Positions 29,356 through 38,875 of a stretch of 64,000 nucleotides of DNA are shown here, in pieces. The notes below the pieces were generated by a model. It worked only from the letters and a program-made list of their open reading frames with translations, was not told the origin of the DNA and searched no databases. A program made the translations under genes and the position numbers. Every line of letters starts with the position of its first letter. Position 1 is the stretch's first letter. Source of the DNA: Nonlabens sp. Hel1_33_55 (lineage in GTDB: Bacteria > Bacteroidota > Bacteroidia > Flavobacteriales > Flavobacteriaceae); the NCBI RefSeq assembly GCF_900101765.1, contig NZ_LT627735.1, forward strand, positions 2,331,344 through 2,395,343. Reading direction: 5' to 3'.

Positions 29356-30069
29356 ATGAACATATTCAAACGACTTTTCAAAATAGGACAGGCAGAAGCA
29401 AACGCAGCTGTCAACAACATGGAAGACCCAATCAAAATGACCGAACAAGGAATTCTTGATATGAAGGAAGACCTGAATAAAAGCGTAGAGGCAATGGCTC
29501 AAGTAAAAGCACTAGCTATACGCTCCAAAAATGACAAGGAAGAACATGCTGCTACCGCAAAGGATTATGAGCAAAAGGCTATAATTATTCTAAAGAAAGC
29601 CCATAGTGGCGAGATGGATACTACAGCAGCAGATCGACTTGCTAAAGAAGCGCTAGCCAAAAAAGAGGCAGCACAACTTAATGTAGAGCGTGCCCAGAAG
29701 GAAAGTGAGAAATTTGAGAATAACGTGGCTCAATTGAAGTCAACTATTGACACGATCAAATCTAATATCACCAACTGGGAGAATGAATTAAAGACATTGA
29801 AAGCGCGTGTCAAAGTAAGCGATGCAACCAAAAATGTCAATAAACAAATGGCAGAACTTGACAGCACTGGCACTGTGAGCATGCTTGAGCGTATGAAGGA
29901 AAAGGTAGCTCAAGACGAAGCACTTGCTGAAGCCTACAGCGACATGGCTGGATCAAGAACAAGTGTTGATGACGAAATCGACGCTGCGGCAGACACCAAA
30001 CAAGCTAAAGTGGATGACGACCTTGCCAAATTAAAAGCACAATTGGGCATCAAGAAGGATGAAGCATAA
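29356..30069 (+). CDS. pspA: PspA/IM30 family protein (phage shock protein A homolog)
   Basis: MNIFKRLFKIGQAEANAAVNNMEDPIKMTEQGILDM matches the PspA N-terminus (MGIFSRF...NALLDKAEDPQKL). It is a 237-aa coiled-coil protein. Confidence 0.8.
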   Translation: MNIFKRLFKIGQAEANAAVNNMEDPIKMTEQGILDMKEDLNKSVEAMAQVKALAIRSKNDKEEHAATAKDYEQKAIIILKKAHSGEMDTTAADRLAKEALAKKEAAQLNVERAQKESEKFENNVAQLKSTIDTIKSNITNWENELKTLKARVKVSDATKNVNKQMAELDSTGTVSMLERMKEKVAQDEALAEAYSDMAGSRTSVDDEIDAAADTKQAKVDDDLAKLKAQLGIKKDEA

Positions 30070-30139
30070 AATGCTTTTGAAGGGATTGGCAACAATGTCA
30101 GTCTAAGCGTGTAAAAACCTAACCATTAACAACCAACCA

Positions 30140-30853
30140 TTGGAAAACTATTTCAACATTCTATTTTCTGAAGTCAACATCACGCTTACCGTGCTGCTGC
30201 TCATCCTTATTGTTTATTGGATTTTTACCATGATCAGCGGTATTGATTTTGACCTGGATGTAGATGTGGACATCGATGTTGATGTGGATGCAGACCTAGA
30301 CATGGATTTTGACAGCATTGAAGGTGGCAACCTTGATTTTGAAGATGTTGCCAATGCAGAAGTGGATCGCGAGCACGTGGTCAACAAACGAACTCGACAG
30401 CTCAAATGGTGGCAAATCATATTGATTTACTTCAATTTTGTGGGTTTGCCGTTCATGTTCACCTTCACGTTTTGGATTTTCTTATGGTGGCTCATGAGCG
30501 TTTTAACAACAGCAGTAACAGGAAGCTATGATAATGTTTTTGGCTTCATTATCGTGCTGGCAGCTCTCATTCCAGCGCTATTTGTGACAAAAATCGTAAC
30601 CACACCATTTAAAGCGTTTTTCAAAAACTTGAATAAAGATGGCGACAAGGCAGTAGACTTTCTAGGCCGCAGCGCTATCTTGATGTCCTCCATTTCAGGA
30701 GATAAGTTGGGCAATGCAGAAGTGCTTGCCGATGGAAATCCCATGAGTATTTACGTCAAGTCGTTGGATGGATCAGAATTACGCTTTCGTGAAAGCGTGC
30801 TCATCATCAAGCAATCGGACGATAAAAATTATTTTTTAGTGAGTAAGGCGTAA
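30140..30853 (+). CDS. NfeD-like (YqiJ/DUF1449) membrane protein with C-terminal OB-fold
   Basis: N-terminal TM segment, an acidic DVDVDID repeat, further TM segments, and a C-terminal beta-barrel (GRSAILMSSISGDKLGNAEVLADGNPMSIYVKS). It sits immediately upstream of the flotillin gene, as in yqiJ-yqiK. Confidence 0.6.
   Translation: MENYFNILFSEVNITLTVLLLILIVYWIFTMISGIDFDLDVDVDIDVDVDADLDMDFDSIEGGNLDFEDVANAEVDREHVVNKRTRQLKWWQIILIYFNFVGLPFMFTFTFWIFLWWLMSVLTTAVTGSYDNVFGFIIVLAALIPALFVTKIVTTPFKAFFKNLNKDGDKAVDFLGRSAILMSSISGDKLGNAEVLADGNPMSIYVKSLDGSELRFRESVLIIKQSDDKNYFLVSKA
30782..30797. repeat. 16-bp palindrome, 15/16 copy in the NfeD CDS (RFRES)
   Basis: CGCTTTCGTGAAAGCG. Confidence 0.8.
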
Positions 30854-30861
30854 TCCATAAA

Positions 30862-30888
30862 GATGTCAGTCTGAGCTTGTCGAAGACG
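30862..30888 (+). repeat. Solo arm of the MITE-like repeat family (GATGTCAGTCTGAGCTTGTCGAAGACG)
   Basis: Exact family consensus, directly after the NfeD stop codon. Confidence 0.7.
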
Positions 30889-30964
30889 TGTCACTAAATA
30901 AAAAGATTAATAAATAATAACAACCGCAGAAACCATTCTGCACAACCATTAATAAAACCAAACT

Positions 30965-33037
30965 ATGGACGGAATTTTAGGAATTATTGTAACAGGACTG
31001 GGAATTCTCCTTTTCCTAGTCATCGTTTACTTCGCGATCATCGCGATGTTTTACAAAAAAGTACATCAAGGACAGGCGCTGGTGCGTACTGGTTTTGGAG
31101 GTACTAAAGTCGCGACAGACAAAGGTTTGTATGTAGTGCCGGTTTTCCACCGTGTGGAGACCATGGATATTTCAGTTAAGAAAATCCAGATTGAGCGTAT
31201 GGGCGTGGAAGGATTGATATGTAAGGATAACATGCGAGCCGATATCAAAGTAGCCTTTTTTGTACGCGTTAATAATGAGGTTGAATACATCAAGAAAGTA
31301 GCACAGACTATAGGTGTGCAGCGCGCTTCTCGCATTGAAACGCTAGAAGATCTTTTTGAAGCCAAATTCTCTGAAGCGCTCAAAACTGTAGGTAAGAAAT
31401 TCCAATTCATTGATTTGTACGAGGCTCGTCGGGAATTTCGCGATGAGATTGTGGATATCATTGGAACAGACTTGAATGGTTACACGCTGGAAGACTGTGC
31501 GATTGACTTTCTAGAGCAAACAAGTGTTGAATTTTTAAAGAAAGACAACATTCTGGATGCAGAAGGTATCAAGAAGATTACCGAATTGACCGCTGCGCAA
31601 AATATCAAGGCCAACTTGATCACTCGTGATGAAGAAAAAACAATTCGCAAGCAAGATGTTGAGGCTCGGGAAGCAATTCTCGAACTGGACAAACAACTCG
31701 CCGAAAAAGAAGAGCAACAAAAACGTGAGATTGCTAACATCAAATCTCGCGAAGACGCAGAAACTCTCAAAGTCGCCGAAGAAGAAAGACTCAAGTCTGA
31801 AACGGCACGCATAGCAACTGAGGAAAAAGTGAAAGTTGCCGAAGAAAACATGCAACGTCAGATTATTGTTGCAGAGAAAAACAAGCAACGTACCGATGCT
31901 GTAGAAACAGAACGCGTAGAAAAAGATCGACTATTAGAAGCAACAGAACGGGAAAGAGTCGTGACTCTGGCACAAATCGAGAAAGAGAAAGTAGTTGAAG
32001 TTGAGAAAAAGAACATCCAGGATGTCATTAGAGATCGCGTGGTTCTTGAAAAAGGAGTAGTTCAGGAGCAGGAAAACATGAAAGACATTGAAGCTTTCAA
32101 ATCTGCCGATCGTGCTAAACAAGTAGCCATTACAAATGCTGAGGCAAAAGCACAAGACGACTTGATCCGTATCACAATTGCTGCAGAGGCCTCTAAACAA
32201 GCAGCTGTTCAAAAAGCAGAGGAAATCAATATCGAAGCTCTTGCTCATAAAGAAGCCAGTGAAAAAGAAGCTGATGCACGTAAAATTCTTGCAGAAGCTA
32301 CCGCTAAAGAAGAAGCAACCGTTGGTTTATCTGAAGCACAAGTAATGCATGCAAAAGCTGAGGCTAGTGAACGTCAAGGAATTGTTGACGCACTGATCAT
32401 CCAGAAAAAAGCTGAAGCAGAGGCAAGCGGAATCACCGCAAAAGCGGCTGCAAAACGTCAAGATGGACTTGCTGAAGCCGAGGTTATCAAAGAAAAAGCC
32501 CTTGCAGATGCTGCTGGAATTGAAGAGAAAGCCAATGCGATGAAGAAACTCGATGGTGTAGGTAAAGATCACGAAGAGTTCAAACTACGTCTGGACAAAG
32601 AACTTCAAGTAGACCTGGCGCAAATCAACATCCAGAAAGATATTGCAGATGCACAAGCACAAGTGATAGGAGATGCATTGAGAGCGGCTAAGATTGATAT
32701 CGTTGGTGGTGAGACCATGTTCTTTGAACAAATCATCGGTCAGATCACTAAAGCCAAAGGTTATGATAGACTCGTGAATCATTCAGAAACGGTTACTGAA
32801 GTAAAAGATGCGATTCTAGGAAGTGGTGACGTGAAAGGGAATTTGCTTGATAAAGTCAAGGACTTTGCAGACCGCTACAACATCAGTTCTGAAGACATTA
32901 AAAACCTAACGATTGCCAATCTATTGATTGATTTACAGGCAAGAGTTGACAATAATGAAGACCAGAACATCTTGACCAACCTTATGAATCTGGCTAAAGG
33001 AATGGGGTTGTCCAATAAGAAGTTGGGTAATATCTAG
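30965..33037 (+). CDS. Flotillin-family SPFH-domain protein (YqiK-like)
   Basis: N-terminal TM segment, an SPFH/band-7 domain (QALVRTGFGGTKV...KVAFFVRV) and a long EA-rich coiled coil; 690 aa. Confidence 0.8.
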   Translation: MDGILGIIVTGLGILLFLVIVYFAIIAMFYKKVHQGQALVRTGFGGTKVATDKGLYVVPVFHRVETMDISVKKIQIERMGVEGLICKDNMRADIKVAFFVRVNNEVEYIKKVAQTIGVQRASRIETLEDLFEAKFSEALKTVGKKFQFIDLYEARREFRDEIVDIIGTDLNGYTLEDCAIDFLEQTSVEFLKKDNILDAEGIKKITELTAAQNIKANLITRDEEKTIRKQDVEAREAILELDKQLAEKEEQQKREIANIKSREDAETLKVAEEERLKSETARIATEEKVKVAEENMQRQIIVAEKNKQRTDAVETERVEKDRLLEATERERVVTLAQIEKEKVVEVEKKNIQDVIRDRVVLEKGVVQEQENMKDIEAFKSADRAKQVAITNAEAKAQDDLIRITIAAEASKQAAVQKAEEINIEALAHKEASEKEADARKILAEATAKEEATVGLSEAQVMHAKAEASERQGIVDALIIQKKAEAEASGITAKAAAKRQDGLAEAEVIKEKALADAAGIEEKANAMKKLDGVGKDHEEFKLRLDKELQVDLAQINIQKDIADAQAQVIGDALRAAKIDIVGGETMFFEQIIGQITKAKGYDRLVNHSETVTEVKDAILGSGDVKGNLLDKVKDFADRYNISSEDIKNLTIANLLIDLQARVDNNEDQNILTNLMNLAKGMGLSNKKLGNI

Positions 33038-33174
33038 GTTGATTTCTAGGGCGCTACACGGTTCTTTCTTTAGAAAGAATCGTGTCGGGCTATCCGCTAT
33101 ATCTTTTAAGCCTTATAGCCTTAAAAGGATACCGCTGCTATCCCTAGCGCGAGAAGCCAAAATATAATATTGAC

Positions 33175-33199
33175 TGTCAGTCTGAGCTTGTCGAAGACG
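33175..33199 (+). repeat. Solo arm of the MITE-like repeat family, upstream flank of the GIY-YIG gene
   Basis: TGTCAGTCTGAGCTTGTCGAAGACG. Confidence 0.7.
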
Positions 33200-33223
33200 G
33201 AATCATTAATCACTAAACCATCT

Positions 33224-33544
33224 ATGAAATTCTATTTTGTCTACATCTTAAAATGCAGCGATGATAGTTTTTACGCAGGTTTTACTTCTAATCTTGACCA
33301 AAGACTTGCAGAACATCAAATGGGTAAATCCGCTGGATATACATCTAAAAGATTACCCTTAGAATTGGTCTGGTTTGAGCAGTTTTTGGATTATCCAGAA
33401 CAAGCAATTCAATGGGAAAAGCGAATCAAAGGCTGGTCAAGGAGAAAGAAACAGGCATTAATCGATGGAAATTGGGACAATTTGATTTTGTTTTCAAAAA
33501 ACTACGCTGAGTATGGAAATAAGATTAAAAGAGTTGAAGATTGA
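33224..33544 (+). CDS. GIY-YIG nuclease family protein (YhbQ/UPF0213-like)
   Basis: FYFVYILKCSDDSFYAGFTSNLDQRLAEHQMG is a GIY-YIG motif. The protein is about 106 aa and is flanked on both sides by repeat-family copies. Confidence 0.7.
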   Translation: MKFYFVYILKCSDDSFYAGFTSNLDQRLAEHQMGKSAGYTSKRLPLELVWFEQFLDYPEQAIQWEKRIKGWSRRKKQALIDGNWDNLILFSKNYAEYGNKIKRVED

Positions 33545-33556
33545 TTCAAATTGAAT

Positions 33557-33660
33557 TGTCAGTCTGAGCTACACCTGTGCTGAGTTTATCGAAGTATCGA
33601 AGACGTTGTAGAAACTAATAAAGATGGTGCAGTCGCACTTCGACAAGCTCAGTGTGACAC
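33557..33660. repeat. Complete MITE-like element (inverted arm pair, left arm with internal duplication)
   Basis: Left arm TGTCAGTCTGAGC[TACACCTGTGCTGAGTTTATCGAAGTA]TCGAAGACG. Right arm GTCGCACTTCGACAAGCTCAGTGTGACAC is the reverse complement of the left arm. Confidence 0.7.
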
Positions 33661-33691
33661 AAACATTGAAAAATGAATATTGATACAACGA

Positions 33692-33775
33692 GATGTCAGT
33701 CTGAGCTTGTCGAAGACGATATAGGGACTAACAAAGCTTTTTAGAAGTCGCACTTCGACAGGCTCAGTGTGACAC
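33692..33775. repeat. Complete MITE-like element (inverted arm pair)
   Basis: GATGTCAGTCTGAGCTTGTCGAAGACG ... GTCGCACTTCGACAGGCTCAGTGTGACAC; 84 bp hairpin-forming. Confidence 0.7.
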
Positions 33776-33805
33776 GAGCATATAAAAAAGAGAAATGAAA
33801 TCGCA

Positions 33806-33831
33806 ATGTCAGTCTGAGCCTGTCGAAGACG
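33806..33831 (+). repeat. Solo arm of the MITE-like repeat family
   Basis: ATGTCAGTCTGAGCCTGTCGAAGACG, about 30 bp upstream of the giant ORF start. Confidence 0.7.
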
Positions 33832-33862
33832 ATTCGAACCAATAAAACTAACTACCATTTCA

Positions 33863-36800
33863 ATGGCAGATAAAGAACTAAAAGACACCACACAACTGGA
33901 CTCTGGAACTTACGAGATCATCCAGAGTCGATTGCTCAAGCAAAAAAATGACTTGCAGCAACGACTCCATGCGCTCAACGAAGAGCGCAAGAAAGTCTTC
34001 GGCTCGCTGGAAACTAGGTTGATTGCAAACGACCGTGTGAATACAGAGAATAACTGTATCGCTCGTGATATTGTGACCATCGGCAAGAACAGCATCTTTG
34101 GTTATAACGTGCACTTTGGATTACGTACAGAGATCAATCTGAGTGATGTTTTTAGTATTTATGAATTTGATCGGGAAGGGAAAGATGGTGATGCATTACG
34201 CTTTCGCGACCTGCCTGCCGGCAGGCAGGAAGCTGGGTCAAGTTTAGAACTCATTGAAGACCCAATCTTTCAAACCGACTTTGAAAATCTTTACAAGTAC
34301 TATCGCAATACCATTTTTTCCAAGTTTGCGATCATAGGGAATTACCTGCACATGGTTTTCCAGCTGAGTGATTCAGTGACGGATATCAAGACCTTTAAGT
34401 GGTTGATAAAAGAAAACGAATTGCAGTATGTGGACAACCGCAGTGAACACGAGTACCGTTTCCCAGCGCAATATGGATTTCAATGGAAAGAAGCTGGACG
34501 TGATAACCAGCGTGCAGGAAAGCACGGCCATGTATCGATTTTAGACAAAGTTTTTGTAGAAACTATAGGTGGTGATTTAACCATTAAAGTAGAAGATAAT
34601 ACAGACGATGGTCAAGGAATCTATCGGGAAGATGTAGAGCACCGCGACCAGACACTCGATGATGGTCAATACCGATATGCAGATTTAGGGAACCTCATCG
34701 TTCTAGAAATCAAACCATTTCAAGAAGAACCGCGTCATTTTGTGTACAACCACAAGATCAAGGAAGTAGAAAAAATTGACAGTATTGCTCAAGCTGCAGT
34801 GCTGTTACCAGACGAGCAAGGAATCATTTTCCCTAGCGGTTATTACTTGCAAACTGGTGAGTACAACGTGTTTCCAAGCGATGCTGGAAAACTAAAATTT
34901 CAGCAAAAAATTGCCTCGCCTAATGGTGAAGATCATTTATACGTTTTCTATAATGCTGCACAAGGATTGTACGTTCTCATGTCGTACAACGTGATTGATC
35001 AATCGGTAAAGACACCTATCGTTTGTAATGGATTTACAATTTTGGAACAAGGTGAGCTGTGCTACTTCCGTAATGGAGATGAGCAGACGAAGCACCACAT
35101 GATGCAAATATGGCAAACCCCTTATTTGAAAGGTGATATTGTACCGTCAGAGCATCAAGATACCATGCTCTATAAAATAGGTAACAAGGACATTGTAAAA
35201 GCAATGGCCGAAGCAAACGAGCTACTGACTCTTTTAAATAAAGAAGACAGCTACGGCGGTTTATATGATGATATCGCTCGTGCCTCAAAAGATATCCTAG
35301 ACGCATACTATTGGCTGCCAGAAGAGGAAACCAAGCAGATCAATCTGCCTCTTGGCGAAATCAACAAAGCATCTAATGCTGCGATTGACGAGTTTGAGAA
35401 AGTCAAGCAAATGCGCAAACAAGCAGCTGCAGAGACTAAGGATATTTCTAAAAAGGCTGAGACGCTATTCAGCAAAATAAAAAGCACGTCGTTCAAATCT
35501 ATTAATGATTTTGTAGAGCTGTTAACTCAACTGCGCAGTTTGCGTGGTGAAGCGATAGGTTTGTATGAAATACGTTATGTAGATACCGATTTCATAAAAG
35601 GAATCGAGGATCAAATCGTGGAGCAAAACGAAGTGATTTCTCGTCGTGCGGTTACCTTTTTGTTAGATGATAAGGCTCTAGCACCTTATCATGAGGCTGT
35701 TGCCGAAAAGCAAAAAGCTCTCGATGCTACTAAAAAGGTTATCGAGATTAAAAACCTTGAAAAGGAGGTCAATCAGATTGCAGAAGATCTGGAGTTACTA
35801 ATAGAAATCGTTTCTAATCTGGATATTGAGGACACGTCGCATTCCACTAAAATTATTGAGAACATCTCCTTGATATTTGCGACCATCAATCAGGTAAAAG
35901 CGGCGATTAAAAACAAGGTGAAAATTGTAGGTAAAAAAGAAGCTCAAGCCGATTTTGCCGCACAGCTGAAGTTGATTGATCAGAGCATTATCAATTACCT
36001 AGACATTGCCAACACGCCAGAAAAGTGTGATGAATTCTTAACTAAAATCTCCATACAGCTAGAAGAGCTAGAAGGAAAGTTTGCGGATTATGATGAGTAC
36101 ATCACAGAAATTATTGCCAAGCGTGAAGAAGTGTATGCCGCTTTTGATAATCGCAAAAGCAGTCTGATAGAAGCGCGTAATAAAAAGGCAATATCCTACC
36201 AAAACGCTGCAGAACGTATTATCAAAGGGGTTCAAAAAAGAGCACAATCACTGGATAGCGCGACAGAAATCAACGGCTATTTTGCCAGTGATTTAATGAT
36301 TAATAAAGTGCGAGACATCATCGCACAATTAAAAGATCTGGAGGACGCTGGAAAAGCCGAAGCCATTGAAACAGCCCTCAAAGTAGCTCGAGAAGATGCC
36401 TTGAGAAAACTCAAGGATAAGAACGAGCTTTATGAGGATGGTGATAACATCATCAAGCTGGGCAAGCATAAATTTGGCGTTAATAAACAACAGCTGGACT
36501 TAACCATAGTCTTCAAGGATAATGCGCTGTTTTATCATCTTACAGGGACCGATTTCTATCAGGAATTACACAATGAGATCCTGACGCAATCCAAAGGAAT
36601 CTGGAATCAAGAATTGGTTTCAGAAAACTCTGAAGTCTATCGGGCGGCTTATCTCGCCTACTCTATCTTTAAAACTGGAGACAAAGAAGCTTTGAGAATG
36701 ATGAGTCCTACAGATTTGCTATTGCGCGTGCAGGAAATAGCGAGCGGCAACTATTCTGGCGGTTATGTGAAAGGTGTTCACGATCACGACACAGCACAGA

Positions 36801-38875
36801 TTTTAAGCGTTTTATTACACAAACATCATGATCTAGGCTTGCTCACATATGATCCAAACACGAGAGCAAAAGCGCAGTTTTTTTGGAACAGTTTAGAGCA
36901 GTCGCAACGTTCCAACCTCAACCGTATTTTAAAAAGTGCTGGCGAGGTGTTATCTGTTTTTCCAGATAGTAAAGAGTATGATTTTATTGTGGAGGAATTG
37001 GCTGATGAGATTTTTAAAGCCAATAGTGCAAACAAGACCGACTTCGACAAGCTCAGTCTGACAAAGGAAAAAACACCAAGCGATGTCACGTTGAGCCTGT
37101 CGAAACGGAGTTTAGATTCTATAAAGCATAATTCCAACTCGACTGCTGGAAACGAACACCAAATCGCTGAATATCTATTCAATGAACTAAAAGACAACGA
37201 TCATTTTACTGTAAGTACGAGTGCTATTCAGTTAAAGGAAGCTTTTGAGAAAAAAATAAAATCTCAAAATGCCGATTTGAAATTCAAGAAAAGTCTAGAA
37301 GCCTGTGAGGACGAGAAGTCTAAAGTAGAACTGGTGAGACATTGGGTTTCTGCTTTCGCGAAAGCGGAATCAAAACAAGCTTTATTGCCCTATACAAACG
37401 AATGTGTTGCTAACATCCTCTACGGAAAACTGACTGCCGATAAAACGGTAGCAATATCGCCTGTGGAAACAATTACAGGATTAAAAGGATCGCATGGAAC
37501 GATCAACGAAAGTGAATTTGTATTCAATTACCACGAGTTTGTGAACGTTTTGGAGCATTTTACTACTGTAAAAGTGCCAGCTTATGAAACCTTTAGAAAA
37601 GCAAAACATCAAGTAACTGAAGAGTTAAAAGAATCGTTGCGATTGGAAGAATTCAAGCCACGAGTGCTAAGCTCATTTGTGCGTAACAAATTGATCGACC
37701 AAGTATATTTCCCATTGATAGGCGATAATCTGGCCAAACAATTAGGAACCGTAGGCGATACGAAACGTACCGACCGAATGGGATTGTTGCTCTTGATATC
37801 ACCACCAGGTTATGGTAAAACCACCTTGATGGAATACATGGCTAACCGGTTGGGCTTGATTTTTATGAAAATCAACGGTCCAGCTATAGGTCACGATATT
37901 ACCTCTGTAGATCCAGAAGCTGCTTCTAATGCGGCAACTCGTGAAGAACTCAAAAAGCTGAATCTTGCTTTTGAAATGGGTGATAACGTGATGTTATATC
38001 TGGATGATATCCAGCACTGTAATCCCGAGTTTTTACAAAAGTTCATCAGTCTGTCTGATGGAACACGTAAGATTGAAGGAGTTTATAATGGCAAGCCTAA
38101 AACCTATGATCTACGTAGTAAGAAATTCTGCGTGATCATGGCTGGTAATCCTTATACAGAAAGCGGAGATAAATTCCAGATTCCAGACATGCTTGCCAAC
38201 CGTGCAGATATTTATAATCTTGGAGATATCATAGGCGATACGGCTCATTTGTTTGAACTAAGTCTGGTTGAAAATGCATTAACGAGCAATCCAGTATTAC
38301 AACAGTTAAGTAACAAGCACTTTGATGATGTATATGCCTTAATCGATCGAGTTCAAAATGGCGCCAGCGATAACGAACTCAAAGGAAACCACAGCAACCA
38401 AGAAATAGCCGACTATGTCGCTGTCCTAGAAAAGGTATTGAAGATACGGGATACGGTTCTTAAAGTAAATGAAGCGTACATCGCCAGCGCAGGAATGGAA
38501 GATGCTTATCGTACGGAGCCTTCTTTCAAACTACAAGGTTCTTATCGTGATATGAATAAACTGGTCGCTAAAGTTGTTCCTATCATGGATGATAAAGAGT
38601 TACAAACTCTCCTATCATCACACTATGAAAGTGAATCACAAACCTTAACCAGCGCTGCAGAAGCAAACTTGTTGAAATACAAAGAACTGGTAAGCACCAT
38701 AAAACCAAAAGAGCAAGAACGATGGACAGCCATCAAAGAAATTTTTGCAAAAAATAACAAGCTGAACGGTCTAGGTGGGCAAAATCAAATGTCTCAAGTA
38801 TTGAATCAGATGATGGATTTTACTGAAAATCTAGAGGGAATAAAAGAGGTGTTGAAGAAAGGGTTAGCTAAGTAA
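33863..38875 (+). CDS. Giant multidomain protein (1670 aa) with C-terminal AAA+ ATPase module (MoxR/AAA_5-like)
   Basis: Continuous ORF. Walker A LLLLISPPGYGKTTL, Walker B VMLYLDDIQHCNPE, sensor-1 FCVIMAGNPYT and arginine ANRADIYNL at about aa 1300-1450. The N-terminal 1250 aa comprise a coiled coil, a beta-rich region and long helical arrays. It contains an in-frame copy of the repeat family at 37041-37107. Confidence 0.6.
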   Translation: MADKELKDTTQLDSGTYEIIQSRLLKQKNDLQQRLHALNEERKKVFGSLETRLIANDRVNTENNCIARDIVTIGKNSIFGYNVHFGLRTEINLSDVFSIYEFDREGKDGDALRFRDLPAGRQEAGSSLELIEDPIFQTDFENLYKYYRNTIFSKFAIIGNYLHMVFQLSDSVTDIKTFKWLIKENELQYVDNRSEHEYRFPAQYGFQWKEAGRDNQRAGKHGHVSILDKVFVETIGGDLTIKVEDNTDDGQGIYREDVEHRDQTLDDGQYRYADLGNLIVLEIKPFQEEPRHFVYNHKIKEVEKIDSIAQAAVLLPDEQGIIFPSGYYLQTGEYNVFPSDAGKLKFQQKIASPNGEDHLYVFYNAAQGLYVLMSYNVIDQSVKTPIVCNGFTILEQGELCYFRNGDEQTKHHMMQIWQTPYLKGDIVPSEHQDTMLYKIGNKDIVKAMAEANELLTLLNKEDSYGGLYDDIARASKDILDAYYWLPEEETKQINLPLGEINKASNAAIDEFEKVKQMRKQAAAETKDISKKAETLFSKIKSTSFKSINDFVELLTQLRSLRGEAIGLYEIRYVDTDFIKGIEDQIVEQNEVISRRAVTFLLDDKALAPYHEAVAEKQKALDATKKVIEIKNLEKEVNQIAEDLELLIEIVSNLDIEDTSHSTKIIENISLIFATINQVKAAIKNKVKIVGKKEAQADFAAQLKLIDQSIINYLDIANTPEKCDEFLTKISIQLEELEGKFADYDEYITEIIAKREEVYAAFDNRKSSLIEARNKKAISYQNAAERIIKGVQKRAQSLDSATEINGYFASDLMINKVRDIIAQLKDLEDAGKAEAIETALKVAREDALRKLKDKNELYEDGDNIIKLGKHKFGVNKQQLDLTIVFKDNALFYHLTGTDFYQELHNEILTQSKGIWNQELVSENSEVYRAAYLAYSIFKTGDKEALRMMSPTDLLLRVQEIASGNYSGGYVKGVHDHDTAQILSVLLHKHHDLGLLTYDPNTRAKAQFFWNSLEQSQRSNLNRILKSAGEVLSVFPDSKEYDFIVEELADEIFKANSANKTDFDKLSLTKEKTPSDVTLSLSKRSLDSIKHNSNSTAGNEHQIAEYLFNELKDNDHFTVSTSAIQLKEAFEKKIKSQNADLKFKKSLEACEDEKSKVELVRHWVSAFAKAESKQALLPYTNECVANILYGKLTADKTVAISPVETITGLKGSHGTINESEFVFNYHEFVNVLEHFTTVKVPAYETFRKAKHQVTEELKESLRLEEFKPRVLSSFVRNKLIDQVYFPLIGDNLAKQLGTVGDTKRTDRMGLLLLISPPGYGKTTLMEYMANRLGLIFMKINGPAIGHDITSVDPEAASNAATREELKKLNLAFEMGDNVMLYLDDIQHCNPEFLQKFISLSDGTRKIEGVYNGKPKTYDLRSKKFCVIMAGNPYTESGDKFQIPDMLANRADIYNLGDIIGDTAHLFELSLVENALTSNPVLQQLSNKHFDDVYALIDRVQNGASDNELKGNHSNQEIADYVAVLEKVLKIRDTVLKVNEAYIASAGMEDAYRTEPSFKLQGSYRDMNKLVAKVVPIMDDKELQTLLSSHYESESQTLTSAAEANLLKYKELVSTIKPKEQERWTAIKEIFAKNNKLNGLGGQNQMSQVLNQMMDFTENLEGIKEVLKKGLAK
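37041..37107. repeat. MITE-like element (arm pair in opposite arrangement) embedded in-frame in the giant ORF
   Basis: CTTCGACAAGCTCAGTCTGACA ... GATGTCACGTTGAGCCTGTCGAAACGG; translated as ...DFDKLSLTKEKTPSDVTLSLSKRS... Confidence 0.65.
37351..37366. repeat. 16-bp palindrome, 15/16 copy in the giant ORF (AFAKA)
   Basis: TGCTTTCGCGAAAGCG. Confidence 0.8.

Follow-up and report, generated by a model that had tools for sequence, protein, structure and literature searches.

What is a small nuclease gene doing among short inverted repeats, in the 825-bp spacer between a flotillin gene and a gene for a giant protein, and do gene and repeats belong together? The question is raised by a locus of the marine bacterium Nonlabens sp. 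Hel1_33_55 (Bacteroidota, Flavobacteriaceae) within a 64,000-nucleotide (nt) stretch of contig NZ_LT627735.1 (positions 2,331,344 to 2,395,343), which is called the window below and whose own numbering is used throughout. The gene encodes a 106-amino-acid (aa) GIY-YIG protein of the UPF0213/YhbQ type, three repeat units flank it or come after it, and two further units lie inside the downstream DUF3686/AAA gene, both in frame. The original prediction had described the repeats as arms of a family resembling miniature inverted-repeat transposable elements (MITEs) and had proposed a nuclease-associated repeat system similar in logic to the pairing of repetitive extragenic palindromes (REPs) with REP-associated tyrosine transposases (RAYTs). 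The reading favored here, to which about an even chance is given, is that of a compact (~350-450 bp) selfish cassette with gene-less derivatives, which follows a REP/RAYT-like logic and in which a Slx1-like GIY-YIG nuclease acts on the folded repeat unit.

The repeat unit and its variable stem

The repeat unit is a 24-nt hairpin that consists of a 5′ TGTCA tag, a stem of 4 bp (at times up to 8 bp) and a conserved 11-nt loop, GAGCYTGTCGA. Each arm of the supposed inverted repeats is itself a self-complementary mini-hairpin (TGTCA, NNCT, GAGCYTGTCGA, AGN′N′) that works alone as a unit, and the two outer pairs of its stem vary freely provided that complementarity is kept. The left units of the window carry the stem GTCT/AGAC, the right units CACT/AGTG when read on their own strand, and the two units inside the giant gene GACT/AGTC and CGTT/AACG; these differing, self-complementary stems explain the seemingly conserved mismatch between left and right arms. 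The MITE-like description does not fit this anatomy, in that the real unit is the 24-nt hairpin, that the members of a pair usually differ and that no target-site duplication was seen. Across the fetched loci, the stem is complementary over at least 4 bp in 286 of 325 core matches, with over a dozen stem variants (CACT/AGTG 74, GTCT/AGAC 67, CTCT/AGAG 20, GACT/AGTC 16, TGGT/ACCA 13, and others), and TGTCA stands directly 5′ of 249 of these matches.

The stem covaries as expected of a conserved fold in units that were found only via a neighboring protein, a set whose selection did not depend on the stem. Positions 3 and 4 of the stem are paired in 87% of cases against 39-43% after shuffling, all four Watson-Crick pair types are used, and the covariation score of 0.399 compares with 0.145 for shuffled sequences (reached in 0 of 500 shuffles) and with at most 0.13 when the partners are slid. 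Double-sided changes number 27 and 33 among 57 sequences, and a compensatory change is also found between orthologues of the in-gene unit at 37084, which reads CGTT/AACG in the window and CGCT/AGCG in a Nonlabens metagenome-assembled genome (MAG; L225). The covarying positions hold 14 G-T and 12 A-C combinations with no strand bias, and the lack of a G-T excess points to no single folding strand and fits DNA slightly better than RNA. A hammerhead-like core (CUGA...GAA) was considered and rejected on inspection, as G8/A9 and the third helix are missing. Rfam 15 covariance models applied to 30000-38000 at E ≤ 1 gave no match at the units and returned only the Flavo-1 RNA and one chance-level match (E = 0.48).

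All repeats of the window, nine units of about 24 nt and one split copy, fall within 30.86-37.11 kb. The 25-mer TGTCAGTCTGAGCTTGTCGAAGACG, for which 100 shuffles gave a chance expectation of none, is present exactly at 30864-30888, 33175-33199 and 33694-33718 and with one mismatch at 33807-33831, which bears out the solo arms placed earlier at 30862, 33175 and 33806. The unit at 30864-30888 (plus strand) is a solo hairpin, TGTCA-GTCT-GAGCTTGTCGA-AGAC-G, between the stop of a 237-aa open reading frame (ORF) at 30853 and the flotillin start at 30965. The unit at 33175-33199 (plus strand) lies 24 nt before the ATG of the GIY-YIG gene (33224-33544, plus strand) and forms the 5′ flank of the cassette in the canonical upstream (+) position. 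The 3′ flank is the minus-strand unit TGTCA-CACT-GAGCTTGTCGA-AGTG-CGAC at 33632-33660 (core unit 33636-33659), an inverted partner to both 33175 and 33557. The unit at 33557-33605 (plus strand) is split: a 27-nt insert after GAGC, which holds a degenerate nested unit at 33573-33596, parts its 5′ half TGTCAGTCTGAGC from its 3′ half TCGAAGACG. Beyond the cassette, a plus-strand left unit at 33694-33718 and a minus-strand right unit at 33747-33775 (core 33751-33774, stem CACT/AGTG) make up a gene-less doublet at 33694-33774, which as single-stranded DNA is predicted to fold at -19.3 kcal/mol (z = -4.4; fold of 33690-33780). Of two complete inverted pairs proposed earlier, this doublet is borne out, and the pair at 33557-33660 has a left arm that is broken by the nested unit. 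A last intergenic unit at 33807-33831 (plus strand, GAGCCTGTCGA) lies 32 nt before the start region of the giant gene, inside which a minus-strand unit at 37040-37063 (stem GACT/AGTC, read as FDKLSLT) and a plus-strand unit at 37084-37107 (stem CGTT/AACG, read as VTLSLSKR) form an inverted pair that is translated as ...TDFDKLSLTKEKTPSDVTLSLSKRS....

Outside the window, a motif scan over one genome per species gave at least 120 loci, and among the matches listed nearly all are from Bacteroidota, with a few from Ignavibacteria, Calditrichota, Zixibacteria and Cloacimonadota. The 448 units of the fetched loci are mostly extragenic, 7% lying in long open frames, where 64% of random positions fall, and the majority of units elsewhere have no GIY-YIG gene nearby. 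They are arranged as (+)(-) doublets with gaps of 0-40 nt, as (-)(+) pairs and as tandem arrays. Doublet partners carry different stem dinucleotides in 66 of the 72 (+)(-) doublets with a gap of at most 90 nt, so that the long hairpin formed by a doublet has two 2x2 internal loops exactly at the covarying positions. Split units occur as well, with a 5′ half (GTCA-NN-CTGAGC) and a 3′ half (TCGAAG-N′N′) that have complementary NN and stand 14-60 nt apart in 79 cases from 40 loci, against 2 cases in a control demanding a non-complementary stem. Between the two halves stands a further unit or else a perfect but unrelated hairpin; examples besides 33557-33605 are found in L007 (6329), L008 (5848), L164 (4356 and 3859), L178 and L201. 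Insertions are therefore tolerated or attracted where GAGC meets TCGA, and this point may mark an insertion or cleavage site, or a second variable stem. Separately, five contigs classed as viral in IMG/VR (L007, L008, L010, L014, L017) hold 3-5 units each, with a 2432-nt spacing that recurs between some of them and no GIY-YIG homologue near the units.

Linkage of the units to the GIY-YIG gene

By sequence, the nuclease is a member of the UPF0213/YhbQ/bacterial Slx1-like family, and, as had been proposed, its gene is the sole family-matched ORF of the spacer. The protein is 100% identical to P0001 of Nonlabens sp. Hel1_33_55. Pfam PF01541 (E = 2.4e-17) spans residues 4-76 of this single-domain protein, the closest solved relatives are the UPF0213 proteins BH0048 and EF2693, with matches to 1zg2 (E = 1.2e-16) and 1ywl (E = 2.7e-10), and the catalytic-type residues Y7, Y17, G19, R27, H31 and E65 are invariant among 22 aligned homologues. 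The conserved remainder outside the domain is a short basic segment, KGWSRRKKQALI, and neither Pfam nor the alignment reveals a separate DNA-binding domain. NCBIfam has no match for the protein, and PADLOC, a search for defense systems, has none for the nuclease, the flotillin or the giant protein. The family is large, with 11,031 cluster representatives (clusters at 50% identity) matching at E ≤ 1e-3, and includes Escherichia coli YhbQ (30% identical, E = 3e-13), which is annotated as a DNA damage response nuclease.

The association of gene and repeats was evaluated from both sides. In the loci picked by the repeat, a GIY-YIG homologue is present in 7 of 120 (among the matches listed), always about 150 bp or less from a unit and usually with one unit on either side. 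Starting from the protein, 80 metagenomic loci were picked solely by similarity to the nuclease, and 59 of these have enough flank to be evaluated. Units in the 80 loci reach a density of 5.19/kb in the first 200 bp from the gene, of 0.78/kb at 200-500 bp and of 0.059/kb past 500 bp, an approximately 88-fold difference between the nearest and farthest zones; a unit lies at most 200 bp from the gene in 42 of the 59 loci, and 26 show the layout unit(+), gene(+), unit(-) that is seen at 33175-33660. The proposal of a nuclease-associated repeat system is thereby supported beyond the window, and neither of the two refuting outcomes named with it, repeats that lack any association with GIY-YIG genes and a locus identical in all relatives, was obtained. 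The canonical cassette measures 344-445 bp from TGTCA to TGACA, and the best reading is that the gene-bearing member of the family is the GIY-YIG gene with one unit per orientation (TGTCA...gene...TGACA), and that doublets, solo units, nested units and short arrays are its gene-less members. Where the exact core is missing, the gene is in most cases surrounded by inverted repeats whose cores are variants, among them GAGCGNAGTCGA, GAGTTTACCGA and GAGGGATCGA, and a unit of the form stem-GAG...CGA-stem lies within 160 nt of the gene in 55 of the 80 loci.

The linkage extends into the protein itself. The C-terminus is SST[GS]SD or FDKLSLT in 12 of the 22 aligned homologues, where the ORF enters the downstream unit and its stop is the TGA of TGACA, and gene and unit are therefore physically fused. 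Terminal peptides encoded by units (LRQAQ, FDKL, STPLR, LSLSK, PERSRR) are found in 34 of 150 family representatives at 50% identity, some of which are joined via the unit-encoded segment to a downstream protein. Two proteins, P0296 (261 aa) and P0333 (284 aa), have the GIY-YIG domain fused via an ILRQAQDE or STPLRVT segment to an unrelated downstream protein, which fits the odd single-case fusions of the 2006 GIY-YIG superfamily survey.

Gain, loss and turnover of the cassette are visible among close relatives. The window locus runs from PspA through an unknown ORF to a 690-aa flotillin (Band_7) and, past the spacer, a 1670-aa DUF3686/DUF7902/AAA "DNA repair ATPase". As had been suggested for testing the mobility of the cassette, this locus was compared in relatives and is not identical among them. 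In N. ulvanivorans, the flotillin/DUF3686 spacer holds a GIY-YIG gene with a similar, non-identical set of units. In N. dokdonensis DSW-6 and a Nonlabens MAG, the spacer instead holds a RAYT-like gene of about 200 aa (L224 5289-5897 and L225 5286-5888, orthologous to window ~33040-33860). This gene encodes an HUH motif, matches PF01797 (E = 1.7e-5) and the NCBIfam REP-associated tyrosine transposase model (E = 5.7e-12, under that model's cut-off), and has the GC-rich palindromes GGGCGGATCGCATCCGCCC and GACGCATGCGATGCGTC on its flanks, with no TGTCA units around it. In sister Nonlabens, a classical REP/RAYT pair thus sits at the very site of the GIY-YIG cassette.

The giant gene shows the same turnover. 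Orthologues of about 90% identity range from 1624 aa, with no unit peptides and without the unit at 37040-37063, to 1670 aa, and unit-encoded peptides in Nonlabens giant proteins occur at three or more linker positions and in either orientation. An insertion site within this gene could not be delimited, the linker being too variable. Linkers of other Nonlabens (orthologues of 33863-38875) have gathered several kinds of peptide derived from repeats, such as DASRPNS repeats, GASQAS and, after about aa 1500, GLRQAQSD, and the length of the giant protein is 1609-1758 aa around a core of about 1620 aa. In a wastewater Flavobacterium, an identical GIY-YIG protein is found in one fixed gene context across many samples, embedded in unit arrays whose length and order vary between samples and include a clean indel of a 72-nt module; a sister GIY-YIG protein is found almost only on contigs of less than 2 kb that end in unit arrays.

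Two other repeats of the Nonlabens locus are distinct from the units. A Flavo-1 RNA (RF01705, 56 bits, E = 2e-10) is matched on the minus strand at 33079-33162, between the flotillin stop and the 5′ unit and 13 nt from that unit; orthologous loci of three other Nonlabens have no copy, which gives it the look of a further inserted repeat. At 34210-34229, in frame within the DUF3686 gene (DLPAGRQ), stands the perfect 20-bp palindrome CCTGCCTGCCGGCAGGCAGG, which occurs once in the window and is shared by no more than 3 of 35 orthologues; a short-read contig from public data (L001) ends within it.

Candidate mechanism and competing explanations

With one small nuclease gene between inverted hairpin units, numerous gene-less units and fast turnover at the locus, the anatomy follows the logic of REP/RAYT, and the GIY-YIG nuclease is a candidate mobilizer of the units. 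The nuclease would recognize the unit when it is folded, on DNA that is single-stranded or extruded, and would nick it at or in the hairpin; host repair or replication would then take other copies as template for new units, doublets or entire cassettes. Doublets, tandem modules, insertions of unit into unit and occasional in-frame insertions in tolerant protein linkers would arise in this way, the nested units and tandem modules as by-products. GIY-YIG enzymes hydrolyze DNA, form no covalent intermediate and cannot join DNA, and copying to new sites would therefore be finished by host repair or replication. What the data show is the unit with its covariation, its tight and general linkage to the gene, its mostly extragenic placement and its gain and loss between close relatives; the action of the nuclease on the units, a substrate of DNA rather than RNA and this copying route are inferred.

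Several points weigh against the cassette reading. Standard DNA parameters predict no stable fold for a lone unit (-1.2 to -3.5 kcal/mol, z about 0 to +1), and its fold would thus be aided by non-canonical pairs, by protein or by the doublet context, or would be only transient. No unit lies inside 200 bp of the gene in 17 of the 59 evaluable homologue loci, and there is only weak co-clustering of protein clade with the type of repeat core (identity 0.52-0.54 within a type, 0.50 between types). E. coli K-12 yhbQ (L246 9967-10269) has no units in 20 kb and is 50 nt from yhbP and overlaps yhbS, and the family accordingly includes host-integrated members. Neither a target-site duplication nor a defined empty site was found around 16 canonical cassettes bounded by inverted units, and to our knowledge GIY-YIG nucleases are not known as transposases.

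The first alternative, which is unlikely, is a homing-type element with the gene as its only mobile part: gene-less doublets would be cut by the nuclease, recombinational repair would insert the gene between the units, and the units would spread by other means. The gene does have a (+) unit on one side and a (-) unit on the other, at the position of the 0-40-nt spacer of gene-less doublets, the sequence past the left unit is alike with and without the gene (...ACTAA[AC]AAAG...), and GIY-YIG is an established homing-endonuclease fold (Dunin-Horkawicz 2006, PMC1564403). Set against this are homology arms of only about 24 bp and a bare 106-aa catalytic domain that has none of the DNA-binding modules of known GIY-YIG homing enzymes, and the spread of units to gene-free sites, to coding linkers and into each other's loops would be left unexplained.

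The second alternative, rather improbable in our estimate, places both parts on the side of the host: the units would be useful or tolerated structures, such as mRNA-end stabilizers or protein-binding hairpins, a Slx1-like host enzyme would process hairpins or cruciforms, and its gene would lie among units for regulation or through local amplification. Selection on the fold is evident from the covariation, the cassette is kept at one site in two Nonlabens species whose neighboring giant proteins are 90% identical, and the fixed context of the identical wastewater protein is in line with a host function, as is the unit-free E. coli YhbQ with its role in the DNA damage response. Domestication has likewise been argued for RAYTs, reportedly by Bertels et al. 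2017. In-frame insertions of either orientation and gain or loss at many linkers nevertheless look parasitic rather than functional, the G-T count does not exceed that of A-C (14 versus 12), so that nothing favors the folding of one transcribed strand, and the site is interchangeable with a REP/RAYT pair.

This interchange also suggests a third alternative, in which the units are moved by another enzyme, for example a Y1/RAYT-type transposase, and the GIY-YIG gene is cargo. The RAYT-like gene in the corresponding spacer of sister species is the observation in its favor; its GC-rich palindromes are different ones, accompanied by no TGTCA units, and a RAYT as mobilizer of the units was rejected on this basis. 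Relatives of this gene were found in only one of the unit-bearing loci (L049) and not in the window, many GIY-YIG stop codons lie inside the downstream unit, and an 88-fold enrichment around one gene family is hard to account for as cargo, which together leave the cargo explanation quite improbable. Least probable is the role raised in the original prediction, namely that the hairpins are terminators or attenuators dividing the PspA-flotillin genes from the giant gene, since doublets do form stable hairpins and are mostly intergenic, but no T-run follows them, the sequence past doublets is A-rich, a terminator scan of 30700-34000 gave 3 sites (2.4 expected) with none at a unit, and units occur in both orientations, within coding sequence and in arrays.

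Beyond this locus, the cassette reading extends to a broader proposal, held somewhat more tentatively, that UPF0213/Slx1-like nucleases and TGTCA-tagged hairpins constitute an unrecognized, widespread class of selfish elements that is convergent with REP doublets (REPINs) and RAYTs. The class would be present in Bacteroidota and, as variant forms, in other phyla, with a structure-specific hydrolytic nuclease driving the spread of a 24-nt hairpin. Its autonomous unit of about 350-450 bp would be smaller than any insertion sequence known to us. If true, this would give a testable role to the UPF0213/YhbQ nucleases, a family of approximately 11,000 clusters (50% identity) with two structures from structural genomics that have no known function. 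It would also explain very common odd or spurious bacterial peptide segments (...VTLSLSK..., ...FDKLSLT..., ...LRQAQ..., ...STPLRVT...) and the breaks of contigs at units in assemblies. Practical interest could, moreover, attach to a nuclease able to read a small DNA hairpin whose stem is free to vary.

Comparison with known systems

The arrangement of a GIY-YIG gene with hairpin units is apparently undescribed in Rfam or the searched literature, where no work linking GIY-YIG genes to such repeats was found, although journals outside that literature may hold one. The 2006 survey of the GIY-YIG superfamily merely asks if further members could be molecular parasites and describes a very recent insertion of a Slx1-like domain in a Deinococcus HsdR gene (PMC1564403). 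E. coli YhbQ, Bacillus halodurans BH0048 and Enterococcus faecalis EF2693 share the family of the present nuclease by sequence; E. coli yhbQ differs in being wedged among host genes with no units, and the searched papers contained no report of a repeat association for the family.

Among repeats, the Flavo-1 RNA motif (RF01705) is likewise a repeated structured element specific to Flavobacteria, whereas its sequence and structure differ from those of the units and its model matches 33079-33162 only and no unit. Rickettsia palindromic elements are small palindromic repeats that also insert in frame and are translated as an extra peptide. They measure about 100-150 bp, are confined to Rickettsia and have no associated nuclease gene that we know of; the present units are shorter and only about 7% of them lie in long open frames.

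The GIY-YIG homing endonucleases (I-TevI, Seg proteins) share with the cassette a GIY-YIG catalytic fold with conserved residues and a selfish lifestyle that relies on host repair after cleavage. The present protein, with 106 aa in total, has no DNA-binding extension, is not placed within an intron or a conserved phage gene and is tied to a dispersed repeat family; for want of a DNA-binding domain it is not a classical homing endonuclease of this type. A pairing of MITEs with an autonomous insertion sequence is closer in organization, as both systems have a gene-bearing element and short gene-less derivatives with common inverted ends, and the ends of the doublet spacers resemble gene-proximal sequence. 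Here, however, the supposed ends are hairpins in their own right, found also as single copies, nested or in arrays, and the sole ORF is a GIY-YIG nuclease rather than a DDE enzyme or another transposase of known type, so that the system is probably not a classical MITE/insertion sequence pair; outside the 16 canonical cassettes no direct repeat was seen.

The closest parallel is with the REP/REPIN-RAYT systems. Both consist of short extragenic hairpin repeats with a conserved 5′ tag, both form inverted doublets, and both have one small enzyme gene between inverted repeats and, elsewhere, numerous copies that have no gene; in sister Nonlabens the cassette site is even filled by a RAYT-like gene and the palindromes that belong to it, so that, if the proposed reading is true, two systems compete for one genomic site within one genus. 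The differences lie in the parts. The loop is conserved and the stem variable in the present units, and the units of a doublet usually differ (66 of 72). The tag is TGTCA where that of REPs is GTAG or CGTC, and the enzyme is a hydrolytic GIY-YIG nuclease (PF01541 only) where that of REPs is an HUH/Y1 transposase (PF01797). The GIY-YIG element works like a REP/RAYT system but, on account of its enzyme and tag, does not belong to that class. If its proposed mode of action is correct, the REP/RAYT lifestyle of one enzyme gene and many hairpins would have evolved more than once, with different catalytic chemistry.

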